Shown here piece after piece: positions 422-20,252 of a stretch of DNA of 64,000 nt. The notes beneath the pieces were generated by a model. That model was not told the DNA's origin and searched no databases. It saw nothing but the letters and a program-made list of their open reading frames with translations. Origin of the DNA: Minisyncoccota bacterium (lineage in GTDB: Bacteria > Patescibacteriota > Minisyncoccia > Phycocordibacterales > UBA9973); the NCBI GenBank assembly GCA_041664285.1, contig JBAYLA010000003.1, positions 4,684-68,683 of the forward strand, written 5' to 3'. Made by a program: the position numbers and the translations under genes. Numbering within the stretch: position 1 is the stretch's first letter; the number at the start of each line of letters is the position of its first letter.

Positions 422-1648
422 TTACTCATACCTTAATGCGTCTATTGGATTTAATGAAGCTGCATGTTGAGCGGGATAGTAACCAAAAACAATGCCAATC
501 ACTGTGGATACTCCAAAAGCTAGTAAGACTGAAGACAAAGAAACTTGAGCTTGCACAATTCCCAAATAAGCTAAACTAACAGATATTAGCCAACCAAGTA
601 TTATTCCTATTGTTCCCCCAACAAACGTAATAACAACTGCTTCTGTTAAGAATTGCGTATTGATGTCTTTACGTTTGGCTCCAATGGCTTTGCGTAAACC
701 TATCTCTCTCGTACGTTCTGTTACAGTGGTTAGCATCATATTCATAATTCCAATTCCTCCTACTAGAAGAGAAATACCTGCAACAGCAGCGAGAAGAGTG
801 GTGAAAGTGCTTGTAACACTTGAGGCGGTAGCGAGAATATCAGCTTGATTCATTGTGCCAAAATCAGCTTTGGTCGAATCTATAATATTATGACGATCAA
901 GCAATAATGTTGTTATGTCTACTTGGACTTGGCTAGAAGCATCAGAACTTTCTGCAGAAACATCAATTTCACTTAAATATTTATTGCCAGATAGATATCT
1001 TTGAGCGGTCGTATAAGGTATATAAACTATGTCGTCACTATTACTAAAACCAGAACCCCCTTTTGATTTTGTGATACCGATTACTTTATATTCCGAACCA
1101 GAAATACGAATTTTTTGACCAACAACATCAGTAACATTTTCGCCAAATAAATCATCTCTCGTGGTTGGTCCCAAGACAGCAACTTTTGAACCGTCTTTTA
1201 CATTTTGATCTGAAATAAAATTTCCTTCATCAATTGAAACGTTACGAACGGTTGCATAAGATGGTTCAGTCCCCATTATGCTGGTATTAGTGTTTGTTCC
1301 TGAAGCAGTTATTTGTTTACGCGAAGAAACTTCCCTTACTACTCCAGCGACATTTGAAATCTGGGTTTCTATTGCATCAGCATCTTCTAAGGTTAATGTT
1401 TGAGCTCCACCACGAGCAGCATTTGGACCACCACTAAAAGAACGAGTAGCTCCAGGAGTAATCATAATTAAATTTGCTCCAATTGATTCAATACTCGAAG
1501 AAATTGAATTTTTTGAACCTTGACCAATTGCGGTCATGGCAATAACTGAAGCAATACCAATAACAACACCAAGCATAGTAAGCCCTGTTCTAACTTTGTT
1601 TGAAAAAAGTGCACTATATGTTTCTTCTAAAATGTCTTTTATTTTCAT
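422..1648 (-). CDS. ABC transporter permease, MacB/FtsX family
   Basis: N-terminal TM helix, large periplasmic domain, C-terminal FtsX-like 3-TM bundle; translationally coupled to upstream ATPase (stop/start overlap). Confidence 0.9.
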   Translation of the reverse strand: MKIKDILEETYSALFSNKVRTGLTMLGVVIGIASVIAMTAIGQGSKNSISSSIESIGANLIMITPGATRSFSGGPNAARGGAQTLTLEDADAIETQISNVAGVVREVSSRKQITASGTNTNTSIMGTEPSYATVRNVSIDEGNFISDQNVKDGSKVAVLGPTTRDDLFGENVTDVVGQKIRISGSEYKVIGITKSKGGSGFSNSDDIVYIPYTTAQRYLSGNKYLSEIDVSAESSDASSQVQVDITTLLLDRHNIIDSTKADFGTMNQADILATASSVTSTFTTLLAAVAGISLLVGGIGIMNMMLTTVTERTREIGLRKAIGAKRKDINTQFLTEAVVITFVGGTIGIILGWLISVSLAYLGIVQAQVSLSSVLLAFGVSTVIGIVFGYYPAQHAASLNPIDALRYE

Positions 1649-2328
1649 AAAGTTTTTTTATCACTTAATATCATTCCATCTTTGATATGGATAATTCTAT
1701 CTGCATGCTCTGCAACATCTTGTTCGTGGGTGATAAGAATAATTGTACGACCCAAATCACGATTTAATTTTTGAAAGGTAGCTAAAACAATTTCTCCGGT
1801 TTTTGTATCAAGGTTTCCAGTTGGTTCATCTGCCAGAATAAGTGCTGGATTATTTACAAGGGCGCGGGCAATAGCTACACGTTGAATTTGTCCGCCGGAA
1901 AGTTGGTTGGAAAGATGTCCAAAATGACTTTCTCCCAGCCCAGCGTCAAACAACGCTTTTTTCGCACGTTGATCTCGTTCAGCGCCATGAATCCCTTCAT
2001 AAACAAGCGGTAAGGAAACATTTCGCAAAACTGTTGTGCGTGGCAAAAGATTGAATGATTGAAAAACAAATCCAATTTTATCTCTTCTGATATCTGCCAG
2101 TTCGTCGTCGGAAAGAGTGGAAACATCTTTTCCGTCAAGAAAATAAGTTCCAGAAGAAGGACTATCAAGCGCCCCTAAGATATGCATCAGAGTTGATTTA
2201 CCAGATCCGGATGGTCCCATAATGGCAACATATTCTCCATTTTTAATAGTGAAAGTTATATTATTTAGGGCTTTGAAATCTTCTTCCCCGCTTTTGTATA
2301 TTTTGGTAATATTTTTAATTTCAATCAT
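1645..2328 (-). CDS. ABC transporter ATP-binding protein (MacB/LolD-like)
   Basis: Walker [10 protein letters not shown], signature [15 protein letters not shown], Walker [13 protein letters not shown]-loop. Confidence 0.95.
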
Positions 2329-2334
2329 AAAAAA

Positions 2335-3960
2335 TTACATTCCCGGAGGACCTCCTCCACCTAACAAACTTTTAGTGCTAGTGGTACTGTTTTTAGTGGT
2401 ACTAGTGCTAGTGACAGTACGAGAAACAACCTGATCTCCTTCTTTTAGCCCTGAAATAATTTCTGTGTTGGTGTCGTCAGAAACTCCAATTTCTACTGTT
2501 ACTTGATTAGGAGCTATACTAGAAGGTGTTCCTTGGGAACCTGTACTGGGGGCGGGAAGTGGAGTAGCAAACATCAAAACATATTTCACAGTGCCTTGAG
2601 TTTTTATTGCACTAGAAGGAATCATAAGCGTATTTGTTTTTGAATCAGTAATAATTGAAGCAGAAACGCTCATACCTGGTTTTATTTGATCATTTTCTGT
2701 GTCAAAAGCAATTTTTATACTATACGACACAACACCGCTAGAAACTGTTCCCATAGTATCAATTTCTGCCACAGATCCGGTCATTGATAGATTTTCTATT
2801 GCATCAAAAGTAATTGTTGCTTTTTGTCCAAGTTTTATTTTTGCCACATCTACTTCGTTCATTGAAAGAGTAGCAATTTTTTTATTAGTGATTATTGAAC
2901 CAAGTGTACCTGAAGCAGTGTCTCCAACCTTAGCAGAGACGCTTGCAATTGTTCCATCAAAAGGTGCAGAAACATAATAATCAGCTAAAGCTTGTTGCGC
3001 ATCAGCTAAAGCATTTTGTTTTTGAGTGACAGTAATCAAAGCGTTTTGCATGTCAATATCATTACTTGGGATAGAGTCTTTATAACTTTGAATATTTTCT
3101 TTAGCGGTGAGTAAAGCAGAGCTGTGTCCATTGATCGTATTTGTATATCCAGATAAAGTACTTTGGGCTGAAGTAAAATCAGATGAGCGTCCTGTATTTT
3201 CTGCTAAATAATTAACATAATTGTTCAAATCTTTTATAGCATTGGATAAAAGTTGAGTTGTGTCGTAAGTTTTACTAATCAAGGCATCAATCTCACTTTG
3301 CTTAGAATTATAATCTAGAGTATTGAAATCATTTTTGTTTTTATCATAGGCTGTTTGGGCGGTATAATAAGCTGTTTCTGCTGTAGTTCTGTAATCTATT
3401 GCAGTTTTTCCACTGTTTCGTGCGGCATTATCTGACAGGGTTCCCTGAGCTAAAAGATTTTGAATTCCATTTAAAGTAGAAGGTAGATCTAAGAAAGTAG
3501 TCGAAACAGTGTTAAAACCATCAACATAAACTTTGGTTAAGCTTGCATTGGTGTTATCGTTAGAGTTTTGAATTTGAAGTTTCTGTAAAGATAAATTTGC
3601 ACTTTGCAAACTTATTTTGGCATCTCGGATAGTTTTTTCTGCATCAGAATTGTCGATTGAAAAAAGTGTTTTACCTTTTGTAACTTTATCACCAGCTTTT
3701 ACTCCTACATGAGTAATTGTTCCAGAAACTTTTGCAATCAAATCAATTTGGCTAGAGCTTTCTACTTGTCCACTTGCGGTAATAGAGGAGATAATCGTTC
3801 CTTTTTGTACTTTTGTTGTAATATATTGTGTTTCTCCGGCAGAACTGGTTATCTTTATATAAATTGAATATCCTCCATACAAAACAGCTATTATTATAAT
3901 TATACTAATAATTTTATGCGCAATGGCAAAGGCTTTAATCTTCAAGAAAAAGTTTTTCAT
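2335..3960 (-). CDS. efflux periplasmic adaptor (HlyD/MacA membrane-fusion family)
   Basis: N-terminal TM anchor, long coiled-coil hairpin region, lipoyl/beta-barrel-like segments; first gene of adaptor-ATPase-permease operon; C-terminal Thr/Ser/Gly/Pro-rich tail. Confidence 0.85.
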   Translation of the reverse strand: MKNFFLKIKAFAIAHKIISIIIIIAVLYGGYSIYIKITSSAGETQYITTKVQKGTIISSITASGQVESSSQIDLIAKVSGTITHVGVKAGDKVTKGKTLFSIDNSDAEKTIRDAKISLQSANLSLQKLQIQNSNDNTNASLTKVYVDGFNTVSTTFLDLPSTLNGIQNLLAQGTLSDNAARNSGKTAIDYRTTAETAYYTAQTAYDKNKNDFNTLDYNSKQSEIDALISKTYDTTQLLSNAIKDLNNYVNYLAENTGRSSDFTSAQSTLSGYTNTINGHSSALLTAKENIQSYKDSIPSNDIDMQNALITVTQKQNALADAQQALADYYVSAPFDGTIASVSAKVGDTASGTLGSIITNKKIATLSMNEVDVAKIKLGQKATITFDAIENLSMTGSVAEIDTMGTVSSGVVSYSIKIAFDTENDQIKPGMSVSASIITDSKTNTLMIPSSAIKTQGTVKYVLMFATPLPAPSTGSQGTPSSIAPNQVTVEIGVSDDTNTEIISGLKEGDQVVSRTVTSTSTTKNSTTSTKSLLGGGGPPGM

Positions 3961-3974
3961 ATAATTATAATTTA

Positions 3975-4478
3975 TTATTGTATTGGTGTTAGTGCCTGAG
4001 GGGGAGGAGGAGGGATAGGCATACCAGCTGGCATTATTCTGATAAGTTTCGCCTCTATTTGGCCTTGAGCATTTGGAGATCCGATAATCACAACAAAATC
4101 ATCAATTATAAGGTCGCTAGCCTTAATTTCTGACATCATTTTTTGTATTTTTGTATCATCTTTTAGTAGAATTACTTTTTCTGTATTATCTTTGTCCTGG
4201 ACGATGATTGTCGGCAAAGTTATTTTTATTATTTTACCAATAGCTCCATTGGCATTTGGGAAATTATCTTGACCAAACATCGGACGATTGGGCCTCATTC
4301 CGAAATTATGTTCATAATTGTCTCCCCATGCACGTCCGAAAGATGCCTTACGAAAACCGACTGTGATTCCAGCTGAAAAGATTAGCAGGGCAACTATAAT
4401 AACCCCAAGTACACACAAAACTTTTAAAGTGATTCTTGATTCAAAAACTTTTTTTATATCCTCGTATATTTTTTTCAT
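3975..4478 (-). CDS. hypothetical membrane-anchored protein
   Basis: single N-terminal TM helix; C-terminal poly-Pro tail (PIPPPPPQALTPIQ); no recognised domain. Confidence 0.5.
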   Translation of the reverse strand: MKKIYEDIKKVFESRITLKVLCVLGVIIVALLIFSAGITVGFRKASFGRAWGDNYEHNFGMRPNRPMFGQDNFPNANGAIGKIIKITLPTIIVQDKDNTEKVILLKDDTKIQKMMSEIKASDLIIDDFVVIIGSPNAQGQIEAKLIRIMPAGMPIPPPPPQALTPIQ

Positions 4479-4494
4479 TTTTTATATAGCTTAA

Positions 4495-4899
4495 TTAAGC
4501 CGTTAATAATAATTGATTTCTAATAATTTGTTTCATTAAATATTTTAATGATAAAAAGAAAATAAAAACTAAAGAAAGAGTAAAAACTATACTTAATACA
4601 GGTAAGGACTCTGCAAGAGAGAACACAAATTCTCTCCAAGCAGAAAGGATTAATCCACTATCAGAAAAAGCCAAAGATAGGTATTCATAAAAACCAGATT
4701 GGGCTAAATCACTCCCTAATATTTTAAAGGCTGGCACTAATCCAACCAAAGAGGTGATTCCCACTAAAACAAAAAGCCATAATTTTATTTGAGTATTATG
4801 TTTTTCACGCTTCACTAGAGTAAGCCAAATATTTTGACTTAAATTAAGGTTTTCTTCATACTTAGCTTTTTGAAACACCTTAGTTAATCTGTCTTGCAT
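4495..4899 (-). CDS. membrane protein, putative anti-sigma factor
   Basis: Immediately downstream (same strand) of ECF sigma gene; cytoplasmic N-term followed by TM helices; assignment by position only. Confidence 0.4.
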   Translation of the reverse strand: MQDRLTKVFQKAKYEENLNLSQNIWLTLVKREKHNTQIKLWLFVLVGITSLVGLVPAFKILGSDLAQSGFYEYLSLAFSDSGLILSAWREFVFSLAESLPVLSIVFTLSLVFIFFLSLKYLMKQIIRNQLLLTA

Positions 4900-4961
4900 A
4901 TATAGAAGGGTATACGTAACAGCAAGTCATTTTGGTGCAAGATCTTGGAAAATTATAAATT

Positions 4962-5045
4962 AAACTTTTTTCGGTACGGATTTTTTGAAGCTTAAAAAAT
5001 CCTGAAGTTTTTGCGCCGTCGCGCTCAAAACCCCTTCAAAAGTTT
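4962..5045. repeat. copy A of a ~90-110 bp intergenic repeat element (palindromic core GGATTTTTTGAAGCTTAAAAAATCC; ends AAACTTTT...AAAAGTTT)
   Basis: Near-identical to reverse complement of 45831-45912 and to 63727-63819; overlaps stop codon of sigma gene. Confidence 0.6.
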
Positions 5046-5619
5046 ATTTATAATTTTCCAACATCCTTCGCATTTCTATAATAGCTCTACGGTGAATACT
5101 TTTAACAGTATTTAGTGGTTTGTTTAAAATACGCCCTATTTCTTCAAAAGTCATTTCTTCTTGATAATGGAGAATTAAAACTTCTTGGTAACCTGGACGA
5201 AGTTTCGCTAGTATTTTATTTAAAAAAATGCTATCTTCCAATTTTTGCAGAGCTTCTTCTGGTAACAAGTTTTCATCTGGTATCTTTTCAGCTAAAGAAT
5301 CTATATCTTCATCATCTTCGTTTTTTATATCAGAAAATAATAAGCTCTTCTTTTTTCTTAAAAAATCGGTCACAGCATTTCTGGCAATAATAAAAATCCA
5401 AGTTTTAAAGCTTGCTTTTCGTAGATCAAAACGCGCAATATTTTTCCAAGCTTTTATAAAAATTTCTTGAACTAGGTCAGATGCCTCATTTTTGTTGGTG
5501 AGGCGCGCAGTAAAATTATAAAGTGGTGTTGTATAGCGAGTGATTAAAACTTTAAACGCTTCTTCGTCACCATTTTTATACAAAACAATGATTTCTTCAT
5601 CTGATTCATTTGATAGCAT
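5044..5619 (-). CDS. RNA polymerase ECF-type sigma-70 family factor
   Basis: Region 2 (LVQEIFIKAWKNIARFD...FKTWIFIIARNA) and region 4 HTH (MTFEEIGRILNKPLNTVKSIHRRAI). Confidence 0.9.
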   Translation of the reverse strand: MLSNESDEEIIVLYKNGDEEAFKVLITRYTTPLYNFTARLTNKNEASDLVQEIFIKAWKNIARFDLRKASFKTWIFIIARNAVTDFLRKKKSLLFSDIKNEDDEDIDSLAEKIPDENLLPEEALQKLEDSIFLNKILAKLRPGYQEVLILHYQEEMTFEEIGRILNKPLNTVKSIHRRAIIEMRRMLENYK

Positions 5620-5681: not shown

Positions 5682-5693
5682 AACATAAAAAAA

Positions 5694-5719
5694 CTCCGAC
5701 CAGAGGTTGGAGTTTTTTT
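5694..5719. terminator. bidirectional rho-independent terminator (CTCCGACC-AGA-GGTTGGAG flanked by A6/T7)
   Basis: 8-bp stem with flanking T-run on + strand and A-run (T-run on - strand); 10 nt downstream of surface-protein gene 3' end. Confidence 0.6.
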
Positions 5720-5729
5720 ATGTTGCTTC

Positions 5730-8078
5730 TTATTGCACTGTAGTGGTTGTAGTTTTCTTACCAGATGGAAGATCAGAAATAACTGTAGTTTTTTTACGGA
5801 AAGACTGATCAAAAATGTATCTAGCTAAAAATGCAAGGATGAGGATCAAGATAAGCAATAGAAGCCATCCGAATAGATTTGTTGGAAGAAAGCCAGCTCC
5901 AAATACGTTTGCTCCAAGTGGTAAGATAGTTGTTTCATCTTTTGTTGCACTCCAGACTTGGGCAGAAACATTAGCATTGACTGATTGAGGTTGTCCAGCA
6001 GGGTCTGTATAACTTAAAGTTGCAGGGAAGTTCAAATTTGTTCCTTCAGCAATATTGTCTCGGACTCGAGTTTTGATGGTAACAGTTCCTTGACCATTGG
6101 CCTTCAGAGTTCCTAAAGTAAAGATTAAAGTATTTCCAGATCTATTTGGGTTATTTGGATTTGAAGAAATGTAATCTACTTCATAGGGAAGATCTACCCT
6201 TAGGGTAAGATTAGAAATTGCTCCTGTGCCTATATTTTGATAGCTGACGGTGTAGTTAATTTCATCTCCAGGACGTGGTCTAGTGTTGTCTATCGTCGGA
6301 ACGATTGGTTGGTTGCGATCAACAGAAGAGGTAATAAGGACAAGTGAAGTCGGAATAGGTTTTGGATTAACGATTGTTTGATTACGAACGGTTATTGTTT
6401 CTGAATCTACAGCAGTCCCGAAATTATTACTACAGGTAAGGGTAAAAGTTCTACTGCCTGTTAATGATCCAGTGTAGAAACTTCCTGGACCAATGCTTTT
6501 TGTTCCTGCCCATCCAACAGATCCTCCTGATGCATTACAATAAGTCGCATTGGTAGTAATCCAACGAAGAGTAGCAGAACCGTTGTAGGCTACATTTGTC
6601 TGATCGGAATAAAGCACTACTGTTGGACGATTGTTAACAACAATATTATATCTGCAAGGGAGTACTCCGCCGTAATTTATGGCACTTGTATCTCGGCAAG
6701 TTTGAATAATGTATGTACAAGGCAGTACACCTCCGTAATTATTAGCATTTATATCTTGGCAAGTTTGAATGTAGTTATTATATCTGCATGGCAATACTCC
6801 ACCATAATTTATAGCACTTGTATCTCGGCAAGTTTGAATGTATGTACAAGGTAATGTTCCTCCATAATTGTTGGCACTTGTGTCTTGGCAAGTCTGTTGT
6901 TGATATTGGTTTACATAAACAGTGGCTGCAGCGCTTGCTTGCTGTCCATTTGTGCCATAACAAGTGATTGTATAATTATTTGTATACGTTGGATAGACAG
7001 AAGAAGATCCGGAAGTTGCACTGCCTCCGTTCCATGAACCAGAACAATAAGATGCATTAGTAGAATTCCAAGTCAAAATTGAACTATTGCCATTCTGAAT
7101 AGAAGAAGGATTGGCATAAAGAGTGACGGTTGGAGTTTGGGTTGTTTGATTTACAGAAACAGTAGCTGAAGCACTGGCTTGCTGTCCGGTACTATTCACA
7201 CAAGTAACACTGTAAGTGGTAGTGACGTTTGGATTAACTATTCCTGATCCACTTGTAGCGGTACTGGAAGTCCAATAAGAAGAACAAGAAGTTGCGTTTG
7301 CAGAATTCCAGACTAAGGTTGAATTACCTCCATATTGAATACTAGATGGATTGGCATAAAGAGTGACGGTAGGAGTTTGCACAAAACATGCTTCATTTGT
7401 ATATGACTGAGTAGAAGATCCAGAACAATAAGCTCCACCGTTACTTGGACTTGGATTGGTGCAGGTACGAGTTTGAGTGCCTGAATATCCACATTGAGTA
7501 CTCTTAGCACTCCAGTCGCTCCAGCCACCGTTTACAGGCACTGAACATGGGGGATTTGTATATGATTGACTAGAAGGTCCAGAACAATAAGCTCCACCGT
7601 TAGCAGGAGTTGGATTGGTACAAGTACGAGTTTGAGTGCCTGAATATCCACATTGAGTACATTTAGCACTCCAATCACTCCATCCTCCGTTTACGGGAGT
7701 TGGGGCAGGGGTACAGGAAGGAGTAGTGAAATTCAAAGTATCACCAATAGCCTTGCCATATCTATTTGAAGCCATTGCTCGATAAGAATATAAACTATTT
7801 TCAGAAAGATTGTTTATTGTTGCTGAAAAAAATTGATCAGAAGAAAAAGTTTGACTTGGAGTGCTGTAGATAGTTGAATTACCTGGCCCCCAATCAAACC
7901 ATACGGTAGTAGGTGAGCCATGAGTTACAAAATCACCCTCTATTGTGGCACTATGGCAACTTAAAGCTATAGGCCCTGCCAAAGCAATTTTAGTAGGAAT
8001 TAAAGTAGAGGCAAAAAGACCAAACAGAGCAATAGCGCTTATTGTTAAAAATTTTGTTTTAAATGTTGTATTTTTCAT
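5730..8078 (-). CDS. large cell-surface protein: signal peptide, FN3-like N-domain, 2 thrombospondin type-1-like repeats, 2 Ig-like ~78-aa repeats, 4 tandem ~23-aa Cys repeats, DUF11-like domain, C-terminal TM anchor
   Basis: WSDWSAK[CS]TQCGYSGTQTRTCTNP...C x2 (TSP1 W-S-x-W-S / C-S-x-T-C-G pattern); QTC[QR]DTSA[IN]NYGG[TV]LPC[RT]Y x4; C-terminal LLLLILILILAFLA hydrophobic anchor. Confidence 0.85.
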   Translation of the reverse strand: MKNTTFKTKFLTISAIALFGLFASTLIPTKIALAGPIALSCHSATIEGDFVTHGSPTTVWFDWGPGNSTIYSTPSQTFSSDQFFSATINNLSENSLYSYRAMASNRYGKAIGDTLNFTTPSCTPAPTPVNGGWSDWSAKCTQCGYSGTQTRTCTNPTPANGGAYCSGPSSQSYTNPPCSVPVNGGWSDWSAKSTQCGYSGTQTRTCTNPSPSNGGAYCSGSSTQSYTNEACFVQTPTVTLYANPSSIQYGGNSTLVWNSANATSCSSYWTSSTATSGSGIVNPNVTTTYSVTCVNSTGQQASASATVSVNQTTQTPTVTLYANPSSIQNGNSSILTWNSTNASYCSGSWNGGSATSGSSSVYPTYTNNYTITCYGTNGQQASAAATVYVNQYQQQTCQDTSANNYGGTLPCTYIQTCRDTSAINYGGVLPCRYNNYIQTCQDINANNYGGVLPCTYIIQTCRDTSAINYGGVLPCRYNIVVNNRPTVVLYSDQTNVAYNGSATLRWITTNATYCNASGGSVGWAGTKSIGPGSFYTGSLTGSRTFTLTCSNNFGTAVDSETITVRNQTIVNPKPIPTSLVLITSSVDRNQPIVPTIDNTRPRPGDEINYTVSYQNIGTGAISNLTLRVDLPYEVDYISSNPNNPNRSGNTLIFTLGTLKANGQGTVTIKTRVRDNIAEGTNLNFPATLSYTDPAGQPQSVNANVSAQVWSATKDETTILPLGANVFGAGFLPTNLFGWLLLLILILILAFLARYIFDQSFRKKTTVISDLPSGKKTTTTTVQ
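6645..6905. repeat. four tandem ~66-69 bp coding repeats inside surface-protein gene
   Basis: DNA tandem repeats encoding QTC[QR]D...LPC[RT]Y units; coding, not CRISPR. Confidence 0.6.
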
Positions 8079-8285
8079 AATATGATTTTTATCATACTAG
8101 TTTACCTTTGTCAAGTATTACTAGATAATAATTTTAATTGTATAAAAGTAAAAATCGACATTTTTACCCTTCCGGAATTATCAATGATAAATATTAATTT
8201 CCATTAATAACTTTGGAAGGGAGAGGAGATGCATAACATCTCCTCATAGATTGATTAAAACTTATAGGAGGGATTTTAGAAGAAT

Positions 8286-8855
8286 TTAATGTGTGTTAAC
8301 GTCGGGAGGTTGTCCTCCGTCGCTACCACCTTTTGAGCCAGATAGTGCCCATACTGCTAGCCCGGTTAATATGATGCCAGCAATAGTCAACTTTCCCCAA
8401 TGCTGACTCAACAAGGATGGTTCTTCAACCTTTTTATCATCGGCGGGGATTAATGGAAGCGGGTCTTTTTTTAAAGCTTCCATTTCGCGTGTTGCGGGTT
8501 TGGTTTGCTCCTCTTTTATGAGAAACAGTTTGTTATATCCTGCGACACACCCGCAGAGATATAACTCACTTCCTTTGACCGCTACTTGAGCCTTATCAGA
8601 AAGTTCCGATAAGACTGCTTTGTTAGAACGTGTGGAATTCCAAATACGAGTCCCCACCAACTCTCCTGCTGGGGAGCACATAACACCGTCCGGCAGTTTT
8701 TTCAGTACTTGGGCTTCGGGGTATTCCACCTCCTGTCCAAACTGAAGGTACCTTCCTTGACCCGTGGGGTCAGGCCTTCCTTCTTCCGCCCAGGCTAGCA
8801 CGGAGAAGCCCAAAATTGCCGCGGCCATTATAATGGCCAAACCTAATCTTTTCAT
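8286..8855 (-). CDS. secreted/membrane-anchored hypothetical protein, compositionally atypical (GC-rich) gene
   Basis: Signal peptide MKRLGLAIIMAAAILGFSVLAWA, C-terminal TM helix; gene visibly much more GC-rich than flanks; adjacent to tRNA-Arg. Confidence 0.6.
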   Translation of the reverse strand: MKRLGLAIIMAAAILGFSVLAWAEEGRPDPTGQGRYLQFGQEVEYPEAQVLKKLPDGVMCSPAGELVGTRIWNSTRSNKAVLSELSDKAQVAVKGSELYLCGCVAGYNKLFLIKEEQTKPATREMEALKKDPLPLIPADDKKVEEPSLLSQHWGKLTIAGIILTGLAVWALSGSKGGSDGGQPPDVNTH

Positions 8856-9125
8856 CTTGTAACCTCCATTTCTAAAGAATTTTTTAGGGTTAAATCCATA
8901 ATATCGTTGGGACTATTCCCCCCCTTTTTTTGTTTTACTTACAATGTACTTTTGGGGACAACCCCCATATATTTAAAAGGATTATTCCTATTATTTTTCA
9001 AATAGAATTGTATCATAGATGGGTCAAAAAGTCAATAGTCCTAAATAGAGTATTGCTTAGCCTAAAAAATTTAATTTTTATATAAAAATCTTTGATTCTA
9101 TAATTAAATTTGAATTTTGTATTAG

Positions 9126-9197
9126 TGCCCTCGGCAGGAATCGAACCTGCATCGCAACTTCCGCAAAGTTGCGTCCTATCCATTGAACGACGAAGGC
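9126..9197 (-). tRNA. tRNA-Arg (anticodon read as GCG from my fold; 4-nt variable loop)
   Basis: Cloverleaf: acceptor GCCTTCG/CGAGGGC, D-arm GTTC-AATGGATA-GGAC, anticodon stem CAACT/AGTTG loop TTGCGGA, T-arm GCAGG-TTCGATT-CCTGC; no encoded CCA. Confidence 0.7.
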
Positions 9198-11179: not shown

Positions 11180-12010
11180 TTATTTCAAATTTAGTTGTAA
11201 CTTGATTTTTTGAGCAATCTCGTCAGCCGTAAAATTAGCTTTAATTAAAAAATCATTGGCTCCCAAGGATAGGGCTTTTTTTCTATCCTCTTCCTCTCCC
11301 AAATTAGTAAGCATAATAACCGGTAAGTTTTTAATTGCGTTGTTTTGATGTGAACGAATTTTTTCTAGTATCTCAAAACCATTCATAGATGGTAAGATAA
11401 TATCCAATAAAACAATTAATGGAGCAAATTCTTCAATTTTTTTTATAACAACTGCTCCATCATCTACGATAAAAACATTAAAACCATCTATTTTTAATTT
11501 TTTTAACAAAATATTAGATAAAAATGAATCATCTTCAACTAATAAAACCTTAGTACCTTCATTTGACCCATCTTCTTTTTTTATATTTATATCTTCTGAT
11601 TTACTTAAAACACTACTGATTTCTTCTTTTTTTATATTTATATCTTCTGATTCACTTAAAACATTTTTGACTTTTTCCACAATCTCTTCTACATCAATCT
11701 GGGCCTTAATCATATAATCAATTGCTCCCAATTTTTTTATTTTTTCCAGTTCAACCGGCTGACCTGAATTAGAAATGATTATTATTGGAATTTTGTTGTT
11801 CTTTTTTTGCAAATTTTCCATAACTTCATAACCATTCATCTTCGGCATAATGATGTCAAGCAGAATTATATCCGGGTTCCATTCGTTAATTTTTGCTAAG
11901 CCATCTTCACCATTAACACTAATTTTTACGTCATAACCTACTTTAGTTAATTTTGCTGACAAGACATTAGCTAATACTTCCTCGTCTTCAATTATTAATA
12001 TTTTTTTCAT
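11180..12010 (-). CDS. response regulator with two tandem receiver (REC) domains and no output domain
   Basis: Two CheY-like domains (IIEDEE..D..LLDIIMP.MNG ; LLVEDD..D..LLDIILP.MNG...K) separated by a duplicated SEDINIKKE linker. Confidence 0.85.
   Translation of the reverse strand: MKKILIIEDEEVLANVLSAKLTKVGYDVKISVNGEDGLAKINEWNPDIILLDIIMPKMNGYEVMENLQKKNNKIPIIIISNSGQPVELEKIKKLGAIDYMIKAQIDVEEIVEKVKNVLSESEDINIKKEEISSVLSKSEDINIKKEDGSNEGTKVLLVEDDSFLSNILLKKLKIDGFNVFIVDDGAVVIKKIEEFAPLIVLLDIILPSMNGFEILEKIRSHQNNAIKNLPVIMLTNLGEEEDRKKALSLGANDFLIKANFTADEIAQKIKLQLNLK
11576..11669. repeat. 2 x ~51 bp tandem direct repeat inside tandem-REC gene (encodes duplicated linker)
   Basis: TTTTTTATATTTATATCTTCTGATT[TC]ACTTAAAACA repeated. 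Confidence 0.5.
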
Positions 12011-12040
12011 ATTTATTTATGTATATTATAAACTATTTTA

Positions 12041-14149
12041 TTAAATATTTCCAACAATAGGAATAAAAAAGTCTACTTCTGTGCCCTTACCTTCTTCGCT
12101 TTTCAAACTAATCGTGCCATTATGTTTTTCTATAATATTCTTAACTAAAAATAATCCCAATCCAGATCCTTCCGTTTCCAGCTTAATCGCATTAGCTGCT
12201 CTAAAAAACTTAGAAAACAACTTTGGTTGATCAGTGTCTGGGATACCCACTCCCTGATCTTTAATTTTAACATGCAAACTCTGCTTGTCAATTTCAGCAA
12301 GAATTTGAATTTTTCCGTATTCGGGAGTGTAATTTATGGCATTACTTAATAAATTTTGCATAACCATGACCATTCTTTCTTTATCTAAAGATATTTTTGG
12401 TAGTCCGGTGGGGATTTCAACATTTAACTCTTGATGATTTTTTGCCACCAAACTATCGATATTACTAATCGCTATATCTAAAACTTCTTTAAAATCAGAA
12501 ATTTCAAAATTAAATCCGAATCTGCCTTCTTCAATACGGGAAACATTTAATAAATCATTAACTAATCTAATTACTCTCTCATTGCTTATATATCCTTTAT
12601 TTAATAATTCTTGCTGTTCCGCGTTTAATTTTCCGGCATCACCTTCTAAAACCATCTTAATTCCCCACTTAATAGCTGACAGAGGGGTTCTTAGTTGATG
12701 GGCAGCTATGGAAATAAATTCTGACTTGATTTTATCAATTCCTTTTTCGCGAGTGGTGTCATAAAATATTTTCATCACGCCAATCTGCTCGTTATTAATA
12801 TCTAATACTTTAGCTGTAATAACTTTATAGGTAGATTCTCGTTGATTTTCTTTTATAGTAATTTCTTCATTTATAAAAATTTGTTCCTTGGTATTTTCCT
12901 TAATTTCCTTAATCTCATAATATTTTTTAATAACTGATTTAAAATTGGAAATGCTAAATTTATTGTCTGTAGCTATTTGTTTATCTAAATCGGCGTTACT
13001 TAAACCAAAAACCCTAGAAGCAGCCGGGTTAATTATATTGATTTTATAATGTTTATCTAAAACAATGATTGGGTCAGTAAAATTAGCAATAATAGCCATG
13101 GTTTTATTTTTTTCCTTTTCCATTTCTTCGCGAGCCTTGGTGTTGTCTTCTAAAATATTAAGTAAAGCTTTTTTTGATTCATCTAACTCTTTTATTTTAT
13201 TTTGTAGCTCTTCAGTTTTTTTACTTACTTTTTTTTCTAAATTTAAATTTAACTCTTCTAATTCCTTGGCTAACTTTTTAGTTTTTTCTTCTTTTATAAT
13301 TTCTTGATTAGCTGATTTAATTAAAAGATAGCCGATTATTATATAAAGTAAAAATATAATTGAACTAATTATTCGTGCCTGTCCGCCTTGAGTTAAAAAT
13401 ATTTGAATAAATAAAACTAAGCCGATTAACATCGTTAGTAGTTCTGTCAAAACCAACTTAATTTCAAATAAATTATTTTTTAAAATAGCATATGCTGTGA
13501 AAATTACTAAAAAAATAGATAAATAGGGGGTTAATTCATTAGAAATAGGGTTAACGGTGCGATCAAACACCGGCCAAATTCCGCTAAAAATTAAAGGGCC
13601 AATAGTTGATAATAATACTCCCCAAATAAAATATTTTATTTGCCATTTTTTAAAGCCAGATTCTTTATAATATGCTCTAACTAAATAATAAAGTCCCAAA
13701 CAAGAAATTAAAACTACGAAAGGTTTACCTAATAAAATATTTAAAGTTCCGGTGGTTTCAGAGTTAAGGTATGGATAATCCGGACTAACGGCAGTCATAA
13801 AATATGGTGTAGCTATAGCCATATAACTCATGAGTATTCCGGTTACGTTTAAAAAAATAATTTTTAACCTTATATACTTAACGTGATTAGTAAAATAATA
13901 AACAAAAATCAGATAATAAGCGCTAAGCATAAAGGCTCCTACCCAATGGGCTCTAGACCAAAATAATTTATTGCTGTTAGGGAAATATACAGCCGCCCAA
14001 CTAAAACACAATGAAGCATAAAAGAAAAAACACCAACCTAAATGAAACGTAGCTTTGTTTTTGCCTCCTCGCCATACTATATAAGCCGCTAGAATATTCA
14101 AAAGGGCGAGAATAAACATTATAATAGCTTTGATTTTTTCAATATCCAT
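12041..14149 (-). CDS. sensor histidine kinase, polytopic N-terminal domain + coiled coil + PAS + HisKA + HATPase_c
   Basis: ~8 TM helices; H-box SIAAHQLRTPL; N, G1, G2 boxes (NLLSNAINYT, DQGVGIP, GSGLGL). Confidence 0.9.
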   Translation of the reverse strand: MDIEKIKAIIMFILALLNILAAYIVWRGGKNKATFHLGWCFFFYASLCFSWAAVYFPNSNKLFWSRAHWVGAFMLSAYYLIFVYYFTNHVKYIRLKIIFLNVTGILMSYMAIATPYFMTAVSPDYPYLNSETTGTLNILLGKPFVVLISCLGLYYLVRAYYKESGFKKWQIKYFIWGVLLSTIGPLIFSGIWPVFDRTVNPISNELTPYLSIFLVIFTAYAILKNNLFEIKLVLTELLTMLIGLVLFIQIFLTQGGQARIISSIIFLLYIIIGYLLIKSANQEIIKEEKTKKLAKELEELNLNLEKKVSKKTEELQNKIKELDESKKALLNILEDNTKAREEMEKEKNKTMAIIANFTDPIIVLDKHYKINIINPAASRVFGLSNADLDKQIATDNKFSISNFKSVIKKYYEIKEIKENTKEQIFINEEITIKENQRESTYKVITAKVLDINNEQIGVMKIFYDTTREKGIDKIKSEFISIAAHQLRTPLSAIKWGIKMVLEGDAGKLNAEQQELLNKGYISNERVIRLVNDLLNVSRIEEGRFGFNFEISDFKEVLDIAISNIDSLVAKNHQELNVEIPTGLPKISLDKERMVMVMQNLLSNAINYTPEYGKIQILAEIDKQSLHVKIKDQGVGIPDTDQPKLFSKFFRAANAIKLETEGSGLGLFLVKNIIEKHNGTISLKSEEGKGTEVDFFIPIVGNI
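12044..12790. repeat. ~750 bp direct repeat (3' end of HK gene), ~85-90% identical to 15001-15745
   Basis: Near-identical DNA and protein (HisKA+HATPase) between the two kinase genes. Confidence 0.6.
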
Positions 14150-14151
14150 GA

Positions 14152-14964
14152 CTATTTTTGATTATTTTCTGTCAATCTAGTAATTTCTTTTTTTAATTCT
14201 ATCATTTTTAATTCTCTGCCCACTACTTGTTTTTCGAATCTCTCTAGCTCAGCAACTTTATTATCTAATTCTTGATTGCTGGCAATTAATTTTTCACTAT
14301 GTTGGGCTAATTCTTTAGTTTGTTCGTTTAACTGCTGCCCTTTTTCTTTAAGTAATGCCTCTCGTTCAAATAATATTTTGGCGCTATAACCAGAAAATGA
14401 TCCAACGATGATATAAAAAATAGCTGTGGTTACTGTTTTTGTTAAAGCAATAGATAAATTTTGAAACTCAATAGTTGTTACGTCATAACGGGGGATATGG
14501 GCAATAATTCCGTAATATTCAGCTACAACTAATAAATTAATTAAAACACCAGCAACAATGGCGGTTACAATTGAGCCTCTGTACCCAAAAATTAACGAAG
14601 CGGAAACTACTGGCATAAAAAAGAAAACTGTAGAGATACTTTCAACTCCTCCGGCCGAATGCATAATTATGATAAAAAAAACCAACTCTAAAATAATCTG
14701 AACATAATTAATTAAAGTTAACAATCCTTTAGAAAAATTCTTTTGTACCTTCTTTATCGCAAAATATAATATTAAATTTATAACTCCAAAAATAATAAAT
14801 AATAAAACCATAGTGGCAAAAGGAAAGCCAACATTAGAGTGGCTGATAGTTTTAGTTAAAACACCGATTAACAAAACTGCAACCATATAAATCCAGCGAG
14901 TTTTAATAATCCACTCGCTAGTAGTGATTTTTCGTTCTAAGCTTCCGTTCACATCTTTTGACAT
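14152..14964 (-). CDS. 6-TM membrane protein with C-terminal signalling-helix/coiled coil, no kinase domain (paralog of 17184-18053)
   Basis: C-terminal ...ELERFEKQVVGRELKMIELKKEI; immediately upstream of kinase gene. Confidence 0.6.
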   Translation of the reverse strand: MSKDVNGSLERKITTSEWIIKTRWIYMVAVLLIGVLTKTISHSNVGFPFATMVLLFIIFGVINLILYFAIKKVQKNFSKGLLTLINYVQIILELVFFIIIMHSAGGVESISTVFFFMPVVSASLIFGYRGSIVTAIVAGVLINLLVVAEYYGIIAHIPRYDVTTIEFQNLSIALTKTVTTAIFYIIVGSFSGYSAKILFEREALLKEKGQQLNEQTKELAQHSEKLIASNQELDNKVAELERFEKQVVGRELKMIELKKEITRLTENNQK

Positions 14965-14997
14965 AAAATTATTTTAGCTGTCAATTAATTTTAAAAT

Positions 14998-19364: not shown

Positions 19365-19814
19365 ATGACTACAGGTAGATTTATGGGGATTGATTATGGA
19401 ACTAAGAGAATAGGAGTAGCAATTTCAGACGAAAACCATACCTTAGCTTTCCCGAAAGAAATTGTTTTAAATGATTTAAATACTTTTAAAAAGATTAATG
19501 ACATAATAAAGAAGGAAAAAGTGGAAGAAATCGTGGTGGGGGAGTCGGTTGATTTTTCAGGTAAATTAAATGTTTTATCAGGTAGGATTGAAGTTTTTAT
19601 TTTAGAACTTAAAGAGAGGTTCAAGTTGCCAGTGCATAAACAAAAAGAGTTTCTGACTTCAGTAGAGGCCCGAAAATCTGGAATTAATAAAAAAAGTTTA
19701 AATTCACCACAGTCACATAGTAAAGTAAAACAAATAAAATCTGGCCGAGTAGATGCATCCGCTGCGGCACTTATATTACAGAGGTATTTAGATCGAAGAA
19801 ATAAACAAAAATGA
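19365..19814 (+). CDS. ruvX: Holliday-junction resolvase-like nuclease RuvX/YqgF (pre-16S rRNA nuclease)
   Basis: N-terminal GIDYGTKRIGVAISD, ...VGES motif; RNase H-like fold family. Confidence 0.85.
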   Translation: MTTGRFMGIDYGTKRIGVAISDENHTLAFPKEIVLNDLNTFKKINDIIKKEKVEEIVVGESVDFSGKLNVLSGRIEVFILELKERFKLPVHKQKEFLTSVEARKSGINKKSLNSPQSHSKVKQIKSGRVDASAAALILQRYLDRRNKQK

Positions 19815-20140
19815 TTAATATAGAAGATTTTAAAAAAATAGATATTGTGGTTGGGGAAATTTTGTCTGTGGAGAAAGTTCCAGAGACAGATAAACTTTTG
19901 AAGCTTTCTGTTAATTTAGCTGAAGCTTTGCCGCGGCAGATAGTTTCTGGAATTTCTTTGTATTTTTCTGATTGTTCAGTTTTAGTGGGAAAGAAATGCA
20001 TGTTTGTAGCAAATTTAGAACCTAGAATGATACGAGGGATTGAAAGTAATGGGATGATCTTGGCTATTTCTACCGAAGATGGAAAGTTTTCACTTTTAGA
20101 ACCGAATGATGATATTCCAGTCGGTACCCATGCAAAGTGA
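19811..20140 (+). CDS. tRNA-binding protein (EMAP/Myf/Trbp111-like OB-fold, CsaA-like)
   Basis: IVVGEILSVEKVPETDKLLKLSVNLAE...; overlaps ruvX stop. Confidence 0.75.
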   Translation: MINIEDFKKIDIVVGEILSVEKVPETDKLLKLSVNLAEALPRQIVSGISLYFSDCSVLVGKKCMFVANLEPRMIRGIESNGMILAISTEDGKFSLLEPNDDIPVGTHAK

Positions 20141-20216
20141 TAGCGATGGAGACTTAAATATCGTATATGGAGTACTATATATCAATAGCACTCGGACATT
20201 AAACAAACTATTTAGC

Positions 20217-20246
20217 TTGTTTATGCTCCTCGTTTATTGATATAAT
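20217..20246 (+). promoter_or_regulatory. candidate sigma-70 promoter TTGTTT-18-TATAAT; -10 ends 7 nt before pilM ATG (leaderless or near-leaderless)
   Basis: hexamers seen in sequence; spacing counted by hand. Confidence 0.35.
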
Positions 20247-20252
20247 ATTACT

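Follow-up and report, generated by a model that had tools for sequence, protein, structure and literature searches.

A candidate fibrillar-adhesin-like surface protein with compact thrombospondin type-1 repeats in Candidatus Paceibacterota

The means by which CPR/Patescibacteria cells recognize their hosts and stay attached to them are for the most part obscure, and the annotation of most of their surface proteins reads "hypothetical". Described here is an open reading frame on the minus strand of a 64,000-nucleotide stretch of DNA (hereafter, the window) from a Candidatus Paceibacterota (CPR) MAG. The product of this frame (5730..8078; ATG start codon; 782 aa) is labelled "hypothetical" in its database entry, and the precomputed annotation of that entry contains no thrombospondin type-1 (TSP1) repeats. 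A preliminary description, made from the letters of the DNA and their translations, had nevertheless proposed two such repeats in an exported, anchored adhesin candidate. We here ask whether these repeats (TSRs) are genuine, how they are distributed among bacteria, and what kind of protein carries them.

From its N- to its C-terminus, the protein consists of a signal peptide, a fibronectin type III (FN3)-like N-domain, two TSRs, two closely similar Ig-like units, four disulfide-loop repeats (termed QTC repeats), a third Ig-like unit, a DUF11/CLIPPER domain, a transmembrane (TM) helix and a tail (Table 1). The proposed signal peptide and C-terminal hydrophobic anchor were both borne out; the N-terminal stretch is basic and then hydrophobic, with a modelled helix at residues 10-25 (low pLDDT) and a layout that is kept in homologues, and a TM helix is modelled near the C-terminus. 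All Cys residues except C140 are predicted to pair inside domains. The hairpin that follows the stop codon is likely, judging by its stem and T-runs, to be a bidirectional terminator, and if it acts as a terminator the gene would be monocistronic.

Table 1. Predicted features of the gene and its immediate flanks (positions in the window; Cys numbers refer to the protein)
Feature	Residues	Position	Strand	Basis or remark
Promoter-like site, TTGACA-18-AAAAAT		8085..8114	-	Consensus scan, a consensus match alone; just 5' of the start codon
Signal peptide, MKNTTFKTKF...ALA followed by GP	1-34	7977..8078	-	Read from the sequence
FN3-like N-terminal domain, Cys41 and Cys122 at its flanks	35-125	7704..7976	-	AF2; titin FN3 signature
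TSP1 repeat 1, Cys 143/153/165/178 and odd Cys140	128-180	7539..7697	-	Profile, phmmer, AF2, Foldseek
TSP1 repeat 2, Cys 196/206/218/231	181-233	7380..7538	-	Pfam TSP_1, phmmer, AF2, Foldseek
Ig-like unit 1, Cys265/Cys293	237-314	7137..7370	-	Identity to unit 2; AF2 beta-sandwich, pLDDT ~90
Ig-like unit 2, Cys345/Cys373	315-392	6903..7136	-	Identity to unit 1; AF2
Four QTC disulfide-loop repeats	393-490	6609..6902	-	TRF 69-nt period; family consensus
Ig-like unit 3, Cys514/Cys549, in the conserved stalk	491-575	6354..6608	-	AF2, pLDDT ~92
DUF11/CLIPPER domain, membrane-proximal stalk	576-710	5949..6353	-	Pfam PF01345, TIGR01451
Juxtamembrane motif LGANVFGAGFLPxNLFGW, TM helix, tail ending GKKTTTTTVQ, stop	TM helix 735-758	5730..5948	-	Conservation, AF2
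Palindromic hairpin, 20 pairs, T-runs on both strands		5682..5724	.	Directly 3' of the stop codon

The two TSR units, each 53 aa long, make up a tandem duplication with a 159-nt unit (1.9 copies at 89% identity and without indels) in which 10 synonymous and 8 non-synonymous codon differences separate the copies. The Pfam TSP_1 profile (PF00090) matches the whole protein with 22.1 bits in two stretches, at a cut-off of 21.6; when the units are scored singly, unit 2 reaches 26.0 bits and unit 1 stays below the cut-off with 16.2 bits. A phmmer search of the PDB sequences with the two-unit stretch retrieved the TSRs of UNC5B (6OOL, E=4e-16) and TSP-1 (1LSL, E=9.1e-11) as well as properdin, C8, C7 and ADAMTS13. 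Structure prediction of the repeats, proposed as a check in the preliminary description, yielded an AF2 model (pLDDT 88.8; two beta-strands per unit) that matched TSR structures only: the best 50 Foldseek matches were all TSR proteins, with 3R6B first (E=5.4e-8), probabilities of up to 1.00, and single-domain alignments at 3.4-3.8 A over ~60 columns. The predicted fold agrees with the elongated, three-stranded TSR form, in which one irregular strand is joined by a beta-hairpin. In addition, 21 columns are invariant in an alignment of the units with metazoan TSRs. The preliminary description had itself allowed for the reading that profile searches would miss TSP1 and leave a generic Cys-rich motif with a chance likeness to it, and some observations lean that way, including a whole-protein Pfam margin of just 0.5 bit, the failure of unit 1 alone, and the absence of two canonical Cys out of six, of one Trp, and of two Arg. 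A chance likeness is nonetheless extremely improbable and disfavoured, given a phmmer match to TSR structures that spans both units, the invariant columns, the uniform Foldseek result, and a graded series that joins these units to six-Cys bacterial units scoring 36-46 bits on the same profile (as compared to 16-26 bits for four-Cys units). Sequence comparison and modelling together thus make a solid case that the two repeats are true homologues of eukaryotic TSP1 repeats.

The details of the proposed TSP1 pattern held up less completely than its overall identity. Two units of approx. 50 aa with W-S-x-W-S are present as proposed, but the predicted R-x-R-x-C reads Q-T-R-T-C, with one Arg, and C-S-x-T-C-G is absent, being replaced by K-C-T-Q-C-G in unit 1 and K-S-T-Q-C-G in unit 2. 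Rather than the six Cys of a canonical TSR, each unit has four structural Cys (C2, C3, C4, and C6), along with two Trp (in WSDWS) and one Arg (in QTRTC). A Lys occupies the canonical C1 position (K139/K192; K, Q or R in the variant generally) and a Tyr occupies C5 (Y173/Y226), and neither unit shows the six-Cys, three-disulfide arrangement (C1-C5, C2-C6, C3-C4); because only C2, C3, C4, and C6 are present, we filed the units as a variant of the TSP1 family and not as canonical members. Cys140 was considered as a retained C1 of unit 1 and rejected, as the register places it one residue past C1; only the C2-C6 and C3-C4 disulfides would be expected to form in these TSRs. The four-Cys form is consistent over ~40 CPR units, is monophyletic in a neighbour-joining tree, and was found only in one large Paceibacterota/Nomurabacteria family, and the reduced Trp/Arg core (two Trp, one Arg) is common to all compact prokaryotic TSRs. 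The O-fucosylation motif C-x-x-S/T-C-G does not occur in the unit sequences; to our knowledge, enzymes for O-fucosylation and for C-mannosylation of WxxW are not to be expected in bacteria. With one D, one K, one R, and one E each, the units carry almost no net charge, and this, together with the single Arg, means that the binding of heparin or sulfated glycans typical of many animal TSRs is not expected; the TSRs may be mere spacers.

To place these units among bacteria, 185,579 species genomes were scanned with two peptide patterns derived from an alignment of CPR units only, such that all counts are lower bounds. At least 116 TSR stretches were confirmed, and Patescibacteria accounted for 53 of the 80 loci kept in this pattern-limited scan. 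The earlier remark that TSP1 repeats are uncommon in bacteria consequently applies to bacteria as a whole but not to Patescibacteria, where they are recurrent. Outside the four-Cys family, compact TSRs with six Cys were found in Moran-, Yanofsky- and Kaiserbacteria and in bins labelled Saccharibacteria, as well as in MAGs labelled Rickettsiales, Gammaproteobacteria, Bdellovibrionales, Thermodesulfovibrionia, Planctomycetales, and Omnitrophota; their carriers include type IV pilin-like proteins (with an N-methyl pilin motif), TadE-like, Big_2, and F5/8-type-C proteins. A literature search for bacterial or CPR type-1 TSRs found no relevant paper, and the one CPR paper that mentions thrombospondin concerns type-3 repeats.

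This distribution also bears on the origin of the repeats. The 42-55% identity to mollusc SCO-spondin-like repeats, and a GC content of the gene (~0.40) above that of its flanks (~0.33), could be explained if the TSRs came from a contaminating eukaryote, from a chimeric assembly, or by a single very recent transfer out of an animal or protist; the higher GC content, however, fits the T/S/N/G/A/P-rich composition of the product. Moreover, the repeats are flanked by domains of bacterial type within a single intact ORF, several CPR assemblies that are independent of one another contain syntenic orthologues with the same four-Cys TSRs, this form of the repeat is both lineage-specific and monophyletic, and compact TSRs elsewhere are fused to the N-methyl pilin motif, TadE, and Big_2. 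We therefore regard an origin of any of these three kinds as effectively refuted, with next to no probability.

Among the other modules, the N-domain is modelled with high confidence as a beta-sandwich at residues 30-118 (pLDDT ~95). Weak phmmer matches of this domain to titin FN3 domains sum to E=7.7e-7, with no single stretch being significant; Pfam FN3 does not match anywhere in the protein, and some homologues carry a precomputed PF16656 annotation. The two Ig-like repeats of ~78 aa that had been noted earlier are present (78 aa each, 60-63% mutual identity), but the total is three, as the more divergent unit 3 follows the QTC repeats; for the Ig-like units, no Pfam match and no PDB sequence relative were found. 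Likewise, the four tandem QTC repeats were confirmed, although not with a strict length of 23 aa, as the spacing varies from 20 to 23 aa. These repeats were detected by TRF as 3.0-3.7 copies of the 69-nt period; the loop consensus is C-Q-D-x-x-A-x-N-Y-x-G-x-L-P-C, and each copy has one Cys pair (397/411, 417/431, 440/454, and 461/475). AF2 confidence is low over the QTC repeats, and searches of Pfam, NCBIfam, and the PDB brought up no relative; matches to LRR-kinase structures in the PDB were rejected as being caused by periodicity.

The DUF11-like C-terminal domain proposed earlier is clearly recovered by PF01345 (DUF11, now "CLIPPER"; 43.2 bits versus a cut-off of 24.6; residues 592-701) and, just above threshold, by TIGR01451 (24.5 bits versus 24). 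A profile of the family matched a single PDB entry, 9IFR, weakly (E=0.37), and a search with the single sequence missed this entry. The isopeptide bond of 9IFR involves Lys715 and Asn806, with Asp748 as the catalytic residue; in the weak profile alignment this Lys falls on Pro594, a residue with at least 90% conservation in the family. The first-strand region of the domain has no Lys, and a conserved Asp (in VDLP) and Asn703 are present; from these residues, the CLIPPER domain seems to be without the isopeptide Lys. Some DUF11 domains are noted to have no isopeptide bond (PMC12617251). With regard to the anchor, no NCBIfam or Pfam sorting-signal model matched the last 78 aa at E<=10, and the C-terminus does not have the form of a sortase, exosortase or archaeosortase sorting signal, the tail of ~24 aa after the helix being itself conserved.

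The protein belongs to a large Paceibacterota/Nomurabacteria family in which ~20% of the members carry TSRs and ~80% have none, implying that the TSR module is dispensable for the core role of the family. A comparison of repeat copy number among relatives, as had been suggested, revealed considerable variation (TSR 0-5, QTC 0-13), and the units of one protein are mutual nearest neighbours. Identity across relatives declines from 84-90% for CLIPPER and 70-80% for Ig-like unit 3 to 32-64% for the N-domain, the most variable part of the family, which falls into two classes that do not track genome relatedness. The family thus pairs a stalk that is conserved near the membrane with a tip that changes fast. 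The gene is present as one copy at a conserved chromosomal position; a search for a second family member beyond MacB at the edge of the window found none there.

The gene is followed directly downstream by an ECF-type sigma factor and a pair of small membrane proteins, an order that is also found at locus L008. One could accordingly read the protein as a single-pass receptor or sensor, whose ectodomain would bind a cue and whose juxtamembrane motif and Thr-rich tail would signal inward, possibly to this sigma factor and its membrane partners; the motif and the tail show more conservation than is usual for a plain anchor, and the gene order is shared as described. However, a strong putative terminator, the hairpin of Table 1, lies between the gene and the sigma factor, profile searches of the cytoplasmic tail recognized no signalling domain in its ~24 residues, and other family members do not have the sigma/MacB cluster next to the gene. 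More specifically, the sigma/HlyD/ABC/MacB cluster adjoins the gene in the window and at L008, L004-6, L010, and L082, but not at L083 or L084; functional coupling to this cluster was rejected on that account, as the adjacency looks like lineage synteny. We rate a receptor or sensor function as quite improbable.

The reading that we favour is that the gene encodes a Sec-exported, single-pass surface protein, C-terminally anchored in the membrane and built like a fibrillar adhesin, which probably has a role in attachment. The signal peptide, the stalk of beta-sandwiches and repeats and the TM anchor of the fibrillar adhesin layout are seen here, and the FN3-like tip and the TSRs are candidate adhesive domains. 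From the membrane outwards, the conserved stalk would consist of the CLIPPER/DUF11 domain and then Ig-like unit 3, beyond which the four QTC loops, two Ig-like units, two TSRs and FN3-like tip would form a variable spacer and head, with one or more disulfides of its own holding each extracellular module together. The stalk would keep a rapidly evolving tip, which would bind the ligand, at a distance from the cell for attachment to the surface of a host or partner cell; the TSRs would be either rigid, protease-resistant extensions or binding modules, and TSR and QTC numbers would shift by tandem duplication, loss, and homogenisation. DUF11/CLIPPER has been characterized experimentally as a stalk domain of fibrillar adhesins (PMC12617251), and membrane proteins with DUF11 and fibronectin domains in the CPR predator Vampirococcus have been read as adhesion candidates (PMC8080830). 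Against this reading, the nearly uncharged TSRs may be mere spacers, most of the family does without them, the CLIPPER domain seems to be without the isopeptide Lys, and no disulfide oxidoreductase is known from the window. Export, disulfide pairing, adhesion, and a ligand are all predictions here, the adhesin role being deduced from the architecture, and on this analysis the protein is a plausible candidate attachment protein.

The main competitor is a structural surface-coat or spacer protein of S-layer or glycocalyx type without a specific ligand, whose distal modules would vary under phage or predator receptor pressure. Divergence that rises towards the tip is also expected from such receptor-escape selection; a single copy at a conserved position, strong conservation of the stalk and of the anchor, TSR units without a charged binding face in their sequence, and the occurrence of DUF11 in archaeal envelope and porin-type proteins (PMC12617251) are likewise compatible with a coat. 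By contrast, there is no recognisable self-assembly or lattice domain, and beads on a string, anchored by one TM helix and tipped by an FN3-like domain, are the layout of a fibrillar adhesin; full-length Foldseek searches returned generic beta-sandwich arrays only, of cell-adhesion and grappling-hook type, though at TM <= 0.19. We consider a coat function unlikely, and retain the fibrillar-adhesin-like protein as the working reading.

These results stand at the level of domain architecture and comprise the identities of the domains, topology signals, modular variation throughout the family and a conservation gradient. They establish the TSR, known chiefly from animals and from malaria parasites and usually treated as a eukaryotic extracellular-matrix module, as a recurrent bacterial surface module, and a conserved stalk with a modular, fast-changing head offers concrete candidates for determinants of host attachment and host range. 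As the four-Cys form lies at the edge of Pfam detection, single-copy members have been missed, as were the repeats in the precomputed annotation of this protein; the results may be of use for annotation, for the study of TSR fold evolution, and as a minimal two-disulfide TSR scaffold. A bolder conjecture, which we hold to be rather improbable, is that Patescibacteria harbor a pool of compact TSRs which is large, ancient, and diversified, that the eukaryotic TSR descended from this pool or was exchanged with it, and that episymbiotic CPR hold their hosts by TSR-tipped filaments, a counterpart of apicomplexan TSR adhesins. If so, the TSR would not be a eukaryotic invention, and nature itself would have run an experiment in the four-Cys form of the Paceibacterota, with a K/R-Tyr pair standing in for the C1-C5 disulfide layer.

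Among known systems, the closest at the level of the domain are the homologous metazoan TSRs (TSR2-3 of thrombospondin-1, UNC5 netrin receptors, properdin, and SCO-spondin), which share with the units described here the NGGWSxWS start, the CG turn, the TRxC strand, the CxNPxPxxGGxxC hairpin, the C2-C6 and C3-C4 cysteines, and an arrangement in tandem arrays in extracellular proteins. The bacterial unit is shorter (~52 aa), with two Trp as opposed to three and a single Arg where metazoan TSRs have two or three; it is without the C1-C5 disulfide (K/Q/R and Tyr) and C-x-x-(S/T)-C-G, and it occurs in a bacterial protein that has CLIPPER and is anchored by a C-terminal TM helix. The compact six-Cys prokaryotic TSRs have the same compact length and WxxW/QTRTC core as the four-Cys units, with an average identity of 56% to them, and one protein (L018) holds both types; they differ in keeping all six Cys and in having carriers other than the CLIPPER-stalk protein of the four-Cys family. 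Apicomplexan TRAP and circumsporozoite proteins likewise place a TSR on a single-pass, C-terminally anchored protein of a small attaching cell, and the circumsporozoite TSR likewise has only two disulfides; apicomplexan TSR adhesins, though, work via an actin-linked cytoplasmic tail and gliding machinery, and none of these proteins was among the phmmer PDB or Foldseek matches of the TSR units.

With regard to the whole protein, Vampirococcus lugosii, also a CPR bacterium, has surface proteins with DUF11 and FN3-type domains for which host attachment has been proposed (PMC8080830); these are likened here by description, and they are larger (1392-4163 aa), with no TSRs reported. The CLIPPER fibrillar adhesins (Costa et al. 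2025, PMC12617251; 9IFR) have long tandem arrays of the domain where a single membrane-adjacent copy is found here, and an isopeptide Lys where a near-invariant Pro aligns; the protein described here has, in place of a known sorting signal, a TM helix and a family-specific motif for its anchor. Nevertheless, both have the PF01345 domain and the same layout of a signal peptide, distal non-stalk domains, a beta-sandwich stalk and a C-terminal anchor.

The two thrombospondin type-1 repeats (TSRs; aa 128-180 and 181-233) that a preliminary description had proposed for the 782-aa surface protein were recovered by profile search, as Pfam family PF00090 (TSP_1) scored 22.1 bits over two stretches of the whole protein; this margin over the cut-off of 21.6 bits is narrow, and the assignment was thus checked independently. 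Scored singly, unit 2 passed (26.0 bits) and unit 1 failed (16.2 bits). A phmmer comparison of aa ~125-235 with all PDB chain sequences agreed with the assignment, matching the TSP domains of UNC5B (E=4e-16) and TSR2-3 of thrombospondin-1 (9e-11), along with UNC5D, properdin, C8, C7, and ADAMTS13. An AlphaFold2 model of aa 126-238, for which the input alignment comprised 37 tandem TSR pairs, had a mean pLDDT of 88.8, and all of its best 50 Foldseek matches in the PDB were TSR-containing proteins, with TSR2-3 of thrombospondin-1 as top match (E=5.4e-8, probability 1.00). The global TM-score of this two-unit model was low (~0.39) because of the angle between the units; single-unit alignments gave 3.4-3.8 A over ~60 columns.

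The DUF11-like domain was likewise borne out by PF01345 (aa 592-701, 43.2 bits, cut-off 24.6), and TIGR01451 (NCBIfam) scored slightly over its cut-off. A full-length model (pLDDT 76.7) resembled a string of beads, and weak sequence matches, significant only when summed, suggested a titin FN3 signature in the N-terminal domain. Relatives of the QTC units (short disulfide-loop repeats) and of the Ig-like units were not found in Pfam, NCBIfam, or PDB sequences. The 15-residue QTC loop, C-Q-D-x-x-A-x-N-Y-x-G-x-L-P-C, is highly conserved, with as many as 13 copies in a single protein, and may resemble C-x-D-x-x-A-x-N-Y motifs of marine Bacteroidota and phage proteins.

When all TSR units from homologues and from 80 bacterial loci were aligned, those of the 782-aa protein formed a tight subtype with the consensus PVNGGWSDWSxxxTQCGxSGxQTRTCTNPSPANGGAYCSGPSTQSYTNxAC. 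In contrast to metazoan TSRs, these units lack the third Trp, retain a single Arg, and keep only C2, C3, C4, and C6 of the canonical Cys; in ungapped register with six-Cys units, C1 is replaced by K/Q/R (K139, K192) and C5 by an invariant Tyr (Y173, Y226). Among the 80 loci kept, this four-Cys form was found only in L001-L019, all of which encode family proteins, and its 32 units formed one clade in a neighbour-joining tree, which was built from ~50-aa sequences without bootstrap and in which the class-defining columns feed into the distances. The L018 protein (Paceibacterota, 1283 aa) carries both subtypes, namely three four-Cys-type units (a YYAVDRT loop is inserted in two of them) together with a long six-Cys unit, and may be an intermediate or mosaic. 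An additional Cys, Cys140, stands in unit 1 one residue past the C1 position; a single nucleotide separates its codon from that of the Ser in unit 2 (TGT versus AGT), and S, D, or N occupies this position in other family units. Cys140 is the sole odd Cys among 25 and unpaired; it could have arisen by recent substitution, be polymorphic, reflect a sequencing error, or serve in intermolecular disulfide formation. The 24 remaining Cys of the mature protein were assigned, by position, to within-domain pairs, consistent with an ectodomain that is disulfide-stapled throughout.

The same protein sequence is deposited at NCBI as "hypothetical", and precomputed annotation on the ENA contig gives PF01345 alone for this protein. 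Nearly all of its 752 relatives are DUF11 proteins of Paceibacterota or Nomurabacteria. Repeat copy number varies among relatives: in 113 bacterial proteins among the matches listed, 23 have 1-5 TSRs, and the count of QTC loops (0-13) is independent of the TSR count. That TSP1 repeats are uncommon in bacteria, as initially supposed, agrees with a pattern-limited scan in which each of 185,579 species was represented by one genome and 116 TSR-encoding stretches were confirmed; the 80 loci kept were labelled as Patescibacteria lineages (53), unspecific (8), or other phyla (19). Loci other than L001-L019 encode a compact six-Cys form, WSxWSxCSxxCGGGTQTRTCTNP...QxCNTQAC, which scored 36-46 bits against TSP_1, above a mussel SCO-spondin unit (31.7), and lie in DNA with a GC content of 0.34 to 0.58. 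Six-Cys TSRs are fused to prokaryotic modules, and bacterial TSRs thus also occur on pilus-type carriers and possibly on sortase-anchored ones. Contamination was considered as the source of these TSRs and rejected, given their fusion to unmistakably prokaryotic modules and their spread over bacterial loci; the TSR is therefore a genuine, infrequent bacterial extracellular module, concentrated in CPR. One four-Cys family member, P0016, lies in a bin labelled Burkholderiales (L005; JAMPXW010000001.1, 276,871 nt); since its neighbour genes are 54-90% identical to the CPR genes of the window, this label is probably wrong, and the other non-CPR labels in the scan warrant equal caution.

Common to all family members are a signal peptide, an FN3-like domain at the N-terminus between two Cys, a variable set of middle modules, Ig-like unit 3, DUF11, and a highly conserved TM segment, LGANVFGAGFLPxNLFGWLLL...; most members end in (G)KKTTTTT(V/I)(Q/E/H). 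At E<=1e-30, a comparison of aa 576-782 with 1.84 billion cluster representatives found 208 proteins; of the best 150, about 70 showed a single end-to-end match at 51-77% identity, and the remainder of these 150 were giant multi-DUF11 proteins. Identity to orthologues drops from the membrane outward, with values of 84-90% for DUF11, 70-80% for Ig-like unit 3, 66-80% for the anchor, 71-90% for the TSRs (where present), and 32-64% for the N-domain. LGANVFGAGFLPxNLFGW, the juxtamembrane motif, hardly varies, and a conserved basic and poly-Thr sequence (GKKTTTTTVQ) closes the cytoplasmic tail; curated sorting-signal models in NCBIfam and Pfam gave no match at the C-terminus. As this conservation exceeds the need of a plain anchor, motif and tail could be a recognition site for sorting or for a partner protein, or a phosphorylation site; that the protein is a receptor signalling through its conserved tail strikes us, on sequence data, as improbable.

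The N-domain falls into two sequence classes, 'PTTVWFDWGPG...YSYRAMASN' and 'TGTPPAYARF.YS...TTYYY.LVVTN', whose distribution tracks neither genome relatedness nor the remainder of the protein. The closest genome (L001) has the other class (43% identity), although its neighbour genes match their window counterparts at 81-94% identity; this points to an exchange of tip cassettes. Tandem TSR units usually have their nearest relatives within their own protein (86-96% identity within versus ~74% between proteins), which indicates homogenisation or repeated duplication. Taken together, these features mark the family as a conserved stalk bearing a modular, fast-changing head; such a head could also belong to a surface coat under phage pressure, a reading that we regard as unlikely.

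Since a hairpin with T-runs sits right behind the stop codon, the surface-protein gene is probably its own transcription unit. The two TSR-like and four QTC units noted initially correspond to the 159-nt and 69-nt arrays, respectively. With each protein part as tblastn query, no second copy was found elsewhere in the whole window; the two 78-aa Ig-like units share 60-63% identity, and the third (aa 491-575) is 25-32% identical to them. Each family gene examined has a signal-peptide ORF of 190-300 aa immediately upstream, with a GC content (0.48-0.56) far over that of its locus (0.34-0.40), itself preceded by a conserved gene for a 164-aa membrane protein. These ORFs share an N-terminal domain in L001, L082, and L084 (weakly in L008), followed by Gly/Tyr/Pro/Arg-rich or collagen-like tails; those of the window, which had no match in Pfam or NCBIfam, and of L083 are unrelated occupants of the same slot. 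The surface protein might have a variable partner in the product of this upstream ORF. The downstream gene order (sigma factor, membrane proteins, HlyD/ABC/MacB trio) recurs in L008; in L004, L005, L006, and L010 the trio immediately precedes the family gene and shares its strand, in L082 it lies upstream on the opposite strand, and in L083 and L084 it is absent from the vicinity of the gene. RuvX and PilM are close to the family gene also in L083 and L084.

Features of the surface protein, its gene and surroundings, and comparison loci (L numbers); nucleotide positions refer to the window unless a locus is named
Feature	Position	Strand	Remark
Surface-protein ORF	5730..8078	-	ATG start, 782 aa
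Promoter-like site	8114-8085	-	Upstream of ORF; consensus match
Palindromic hairpin	5682-5724		20 pairs, flanking T-runs; immediately past stop codon
159-nt tandem array	7395-7694		1.9 copies, 89% identical, no indels; Tandem Repeats Finder
69-nt tandem array	6643-6893		3.0-3.7 copies; Tandem Repeats Finder
Tip-class region	7704-7976 (aa 35-125); L001 4260-4541		
Codon 140	7659-7661		
QTC loops	6609-6902		
Juxtamembrane motif and tail	5730-5948 (aa 711-782)		
Signal helix	residues 10-25		Full-length model, pLDDT low
FN3-like sandwich	residues 30-118		Full-length model, pLDDT ~95
Two TSRs	residues 133-231		Full-length model, pLDDT 58-84
Three Ig-like sandwiches	residues 237-310, 317-390, 486-564		Full-length model, pLDDT 85-92
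QTC region	residues 395-480		Full-length model, low confidence
DUF11 sandwich	residues 580-707		Full-length model, pLDDT ~92
TM helix	residues 735-758		Full-length model, pLDDT 78-90
Upstream signal-peptide ORF	8286-8855	-	Adjoins tRNA-Arg(gcg), 9125-9197
Upstream signal-peptide ORFs, other loci	L001 3108-3941; L082 6893-7801; L083 7197-7793; L084 6989-7804; L008 ~1100-2900		
ECF-type sigma-70 factor	5044-5619	-	Downstream of surface-protein gene (region 422-5619)
Two small membrane proteins	4495-4899, 3975-4478	-	Downstream; no family match
HlyD-like, ABC ATPase, MacB-FtsX permease	2335-3960, 1645-2328, 422-1648	-	
Regions rich in sensing and envelope genes	11180-16560, 19365-21350		Double-receiver response regulator, two PAS histidine kinases, 7TM histidine kinase, PilS-like 6TM protein; RuvX and PilM next, then two small ORFs without assignment
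L018 TSR protein	L018 4768-8616		InlB-type B-repeats
L052 six-Cys carrier	L052 4900-6789		Type IV pilin-like: N_methyl motif (N-terminal methylation), two TSRs
L037 six-Cys carrier	L037 5044-6339		TadE/TadF-like protein
L074 six-Cys carrier			Big_2
L035 six-Cys carrier			F5/8-type C
L047 TSR protein	L047 5440-6280		C-terminal LPxTG-like signal (SLPTAG, then hydrophobic stretch), by eye

Full-text literature searches found no papers on type-1 TSRs in CPR or other bacteria. While the domain types are already known, the four-Cys TSR variant specific to Paceibacterota, which profiles barely detect, the wider pool of compact six-Cys bacterial TSRs, and the modular stalk-and-head family bearing the four-Cys form are new. 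The surface protein would be exported by Sec and anchored in the membrane by its C-terminal helix, with disulfide-stapled modules holding it out from the cell and the fastest-evolving domain at the tip. This architecture would be that of a fibrillar-adhesin-like protein, and attachment to a host or partner, by a CPR cell expected to live attached, is the most economical reading. [quoted passage not shown] 9IFR was the sole, weak PDB match (E=0.37) of the family-domain profile, and the bond is probably absent from the DUF11 of the window protein, because in this weak alignment the isopeptide Lys (VVKTTT) lies opposite Pro594 (IVPTID), which is near-invariant in the family. Unlike heparin-binding animal TSRs, the TSR units of the window protein are close to neutral overall and contain only one Arg each, and ~80% of the family lacks TSRs; the repeats may be mere rigid extension modules. 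Membrane proteins with DUF11 and fibronectin domains in the CPR predator Vampirococcus have likewise been read as attachment proteins (PMC8080830).
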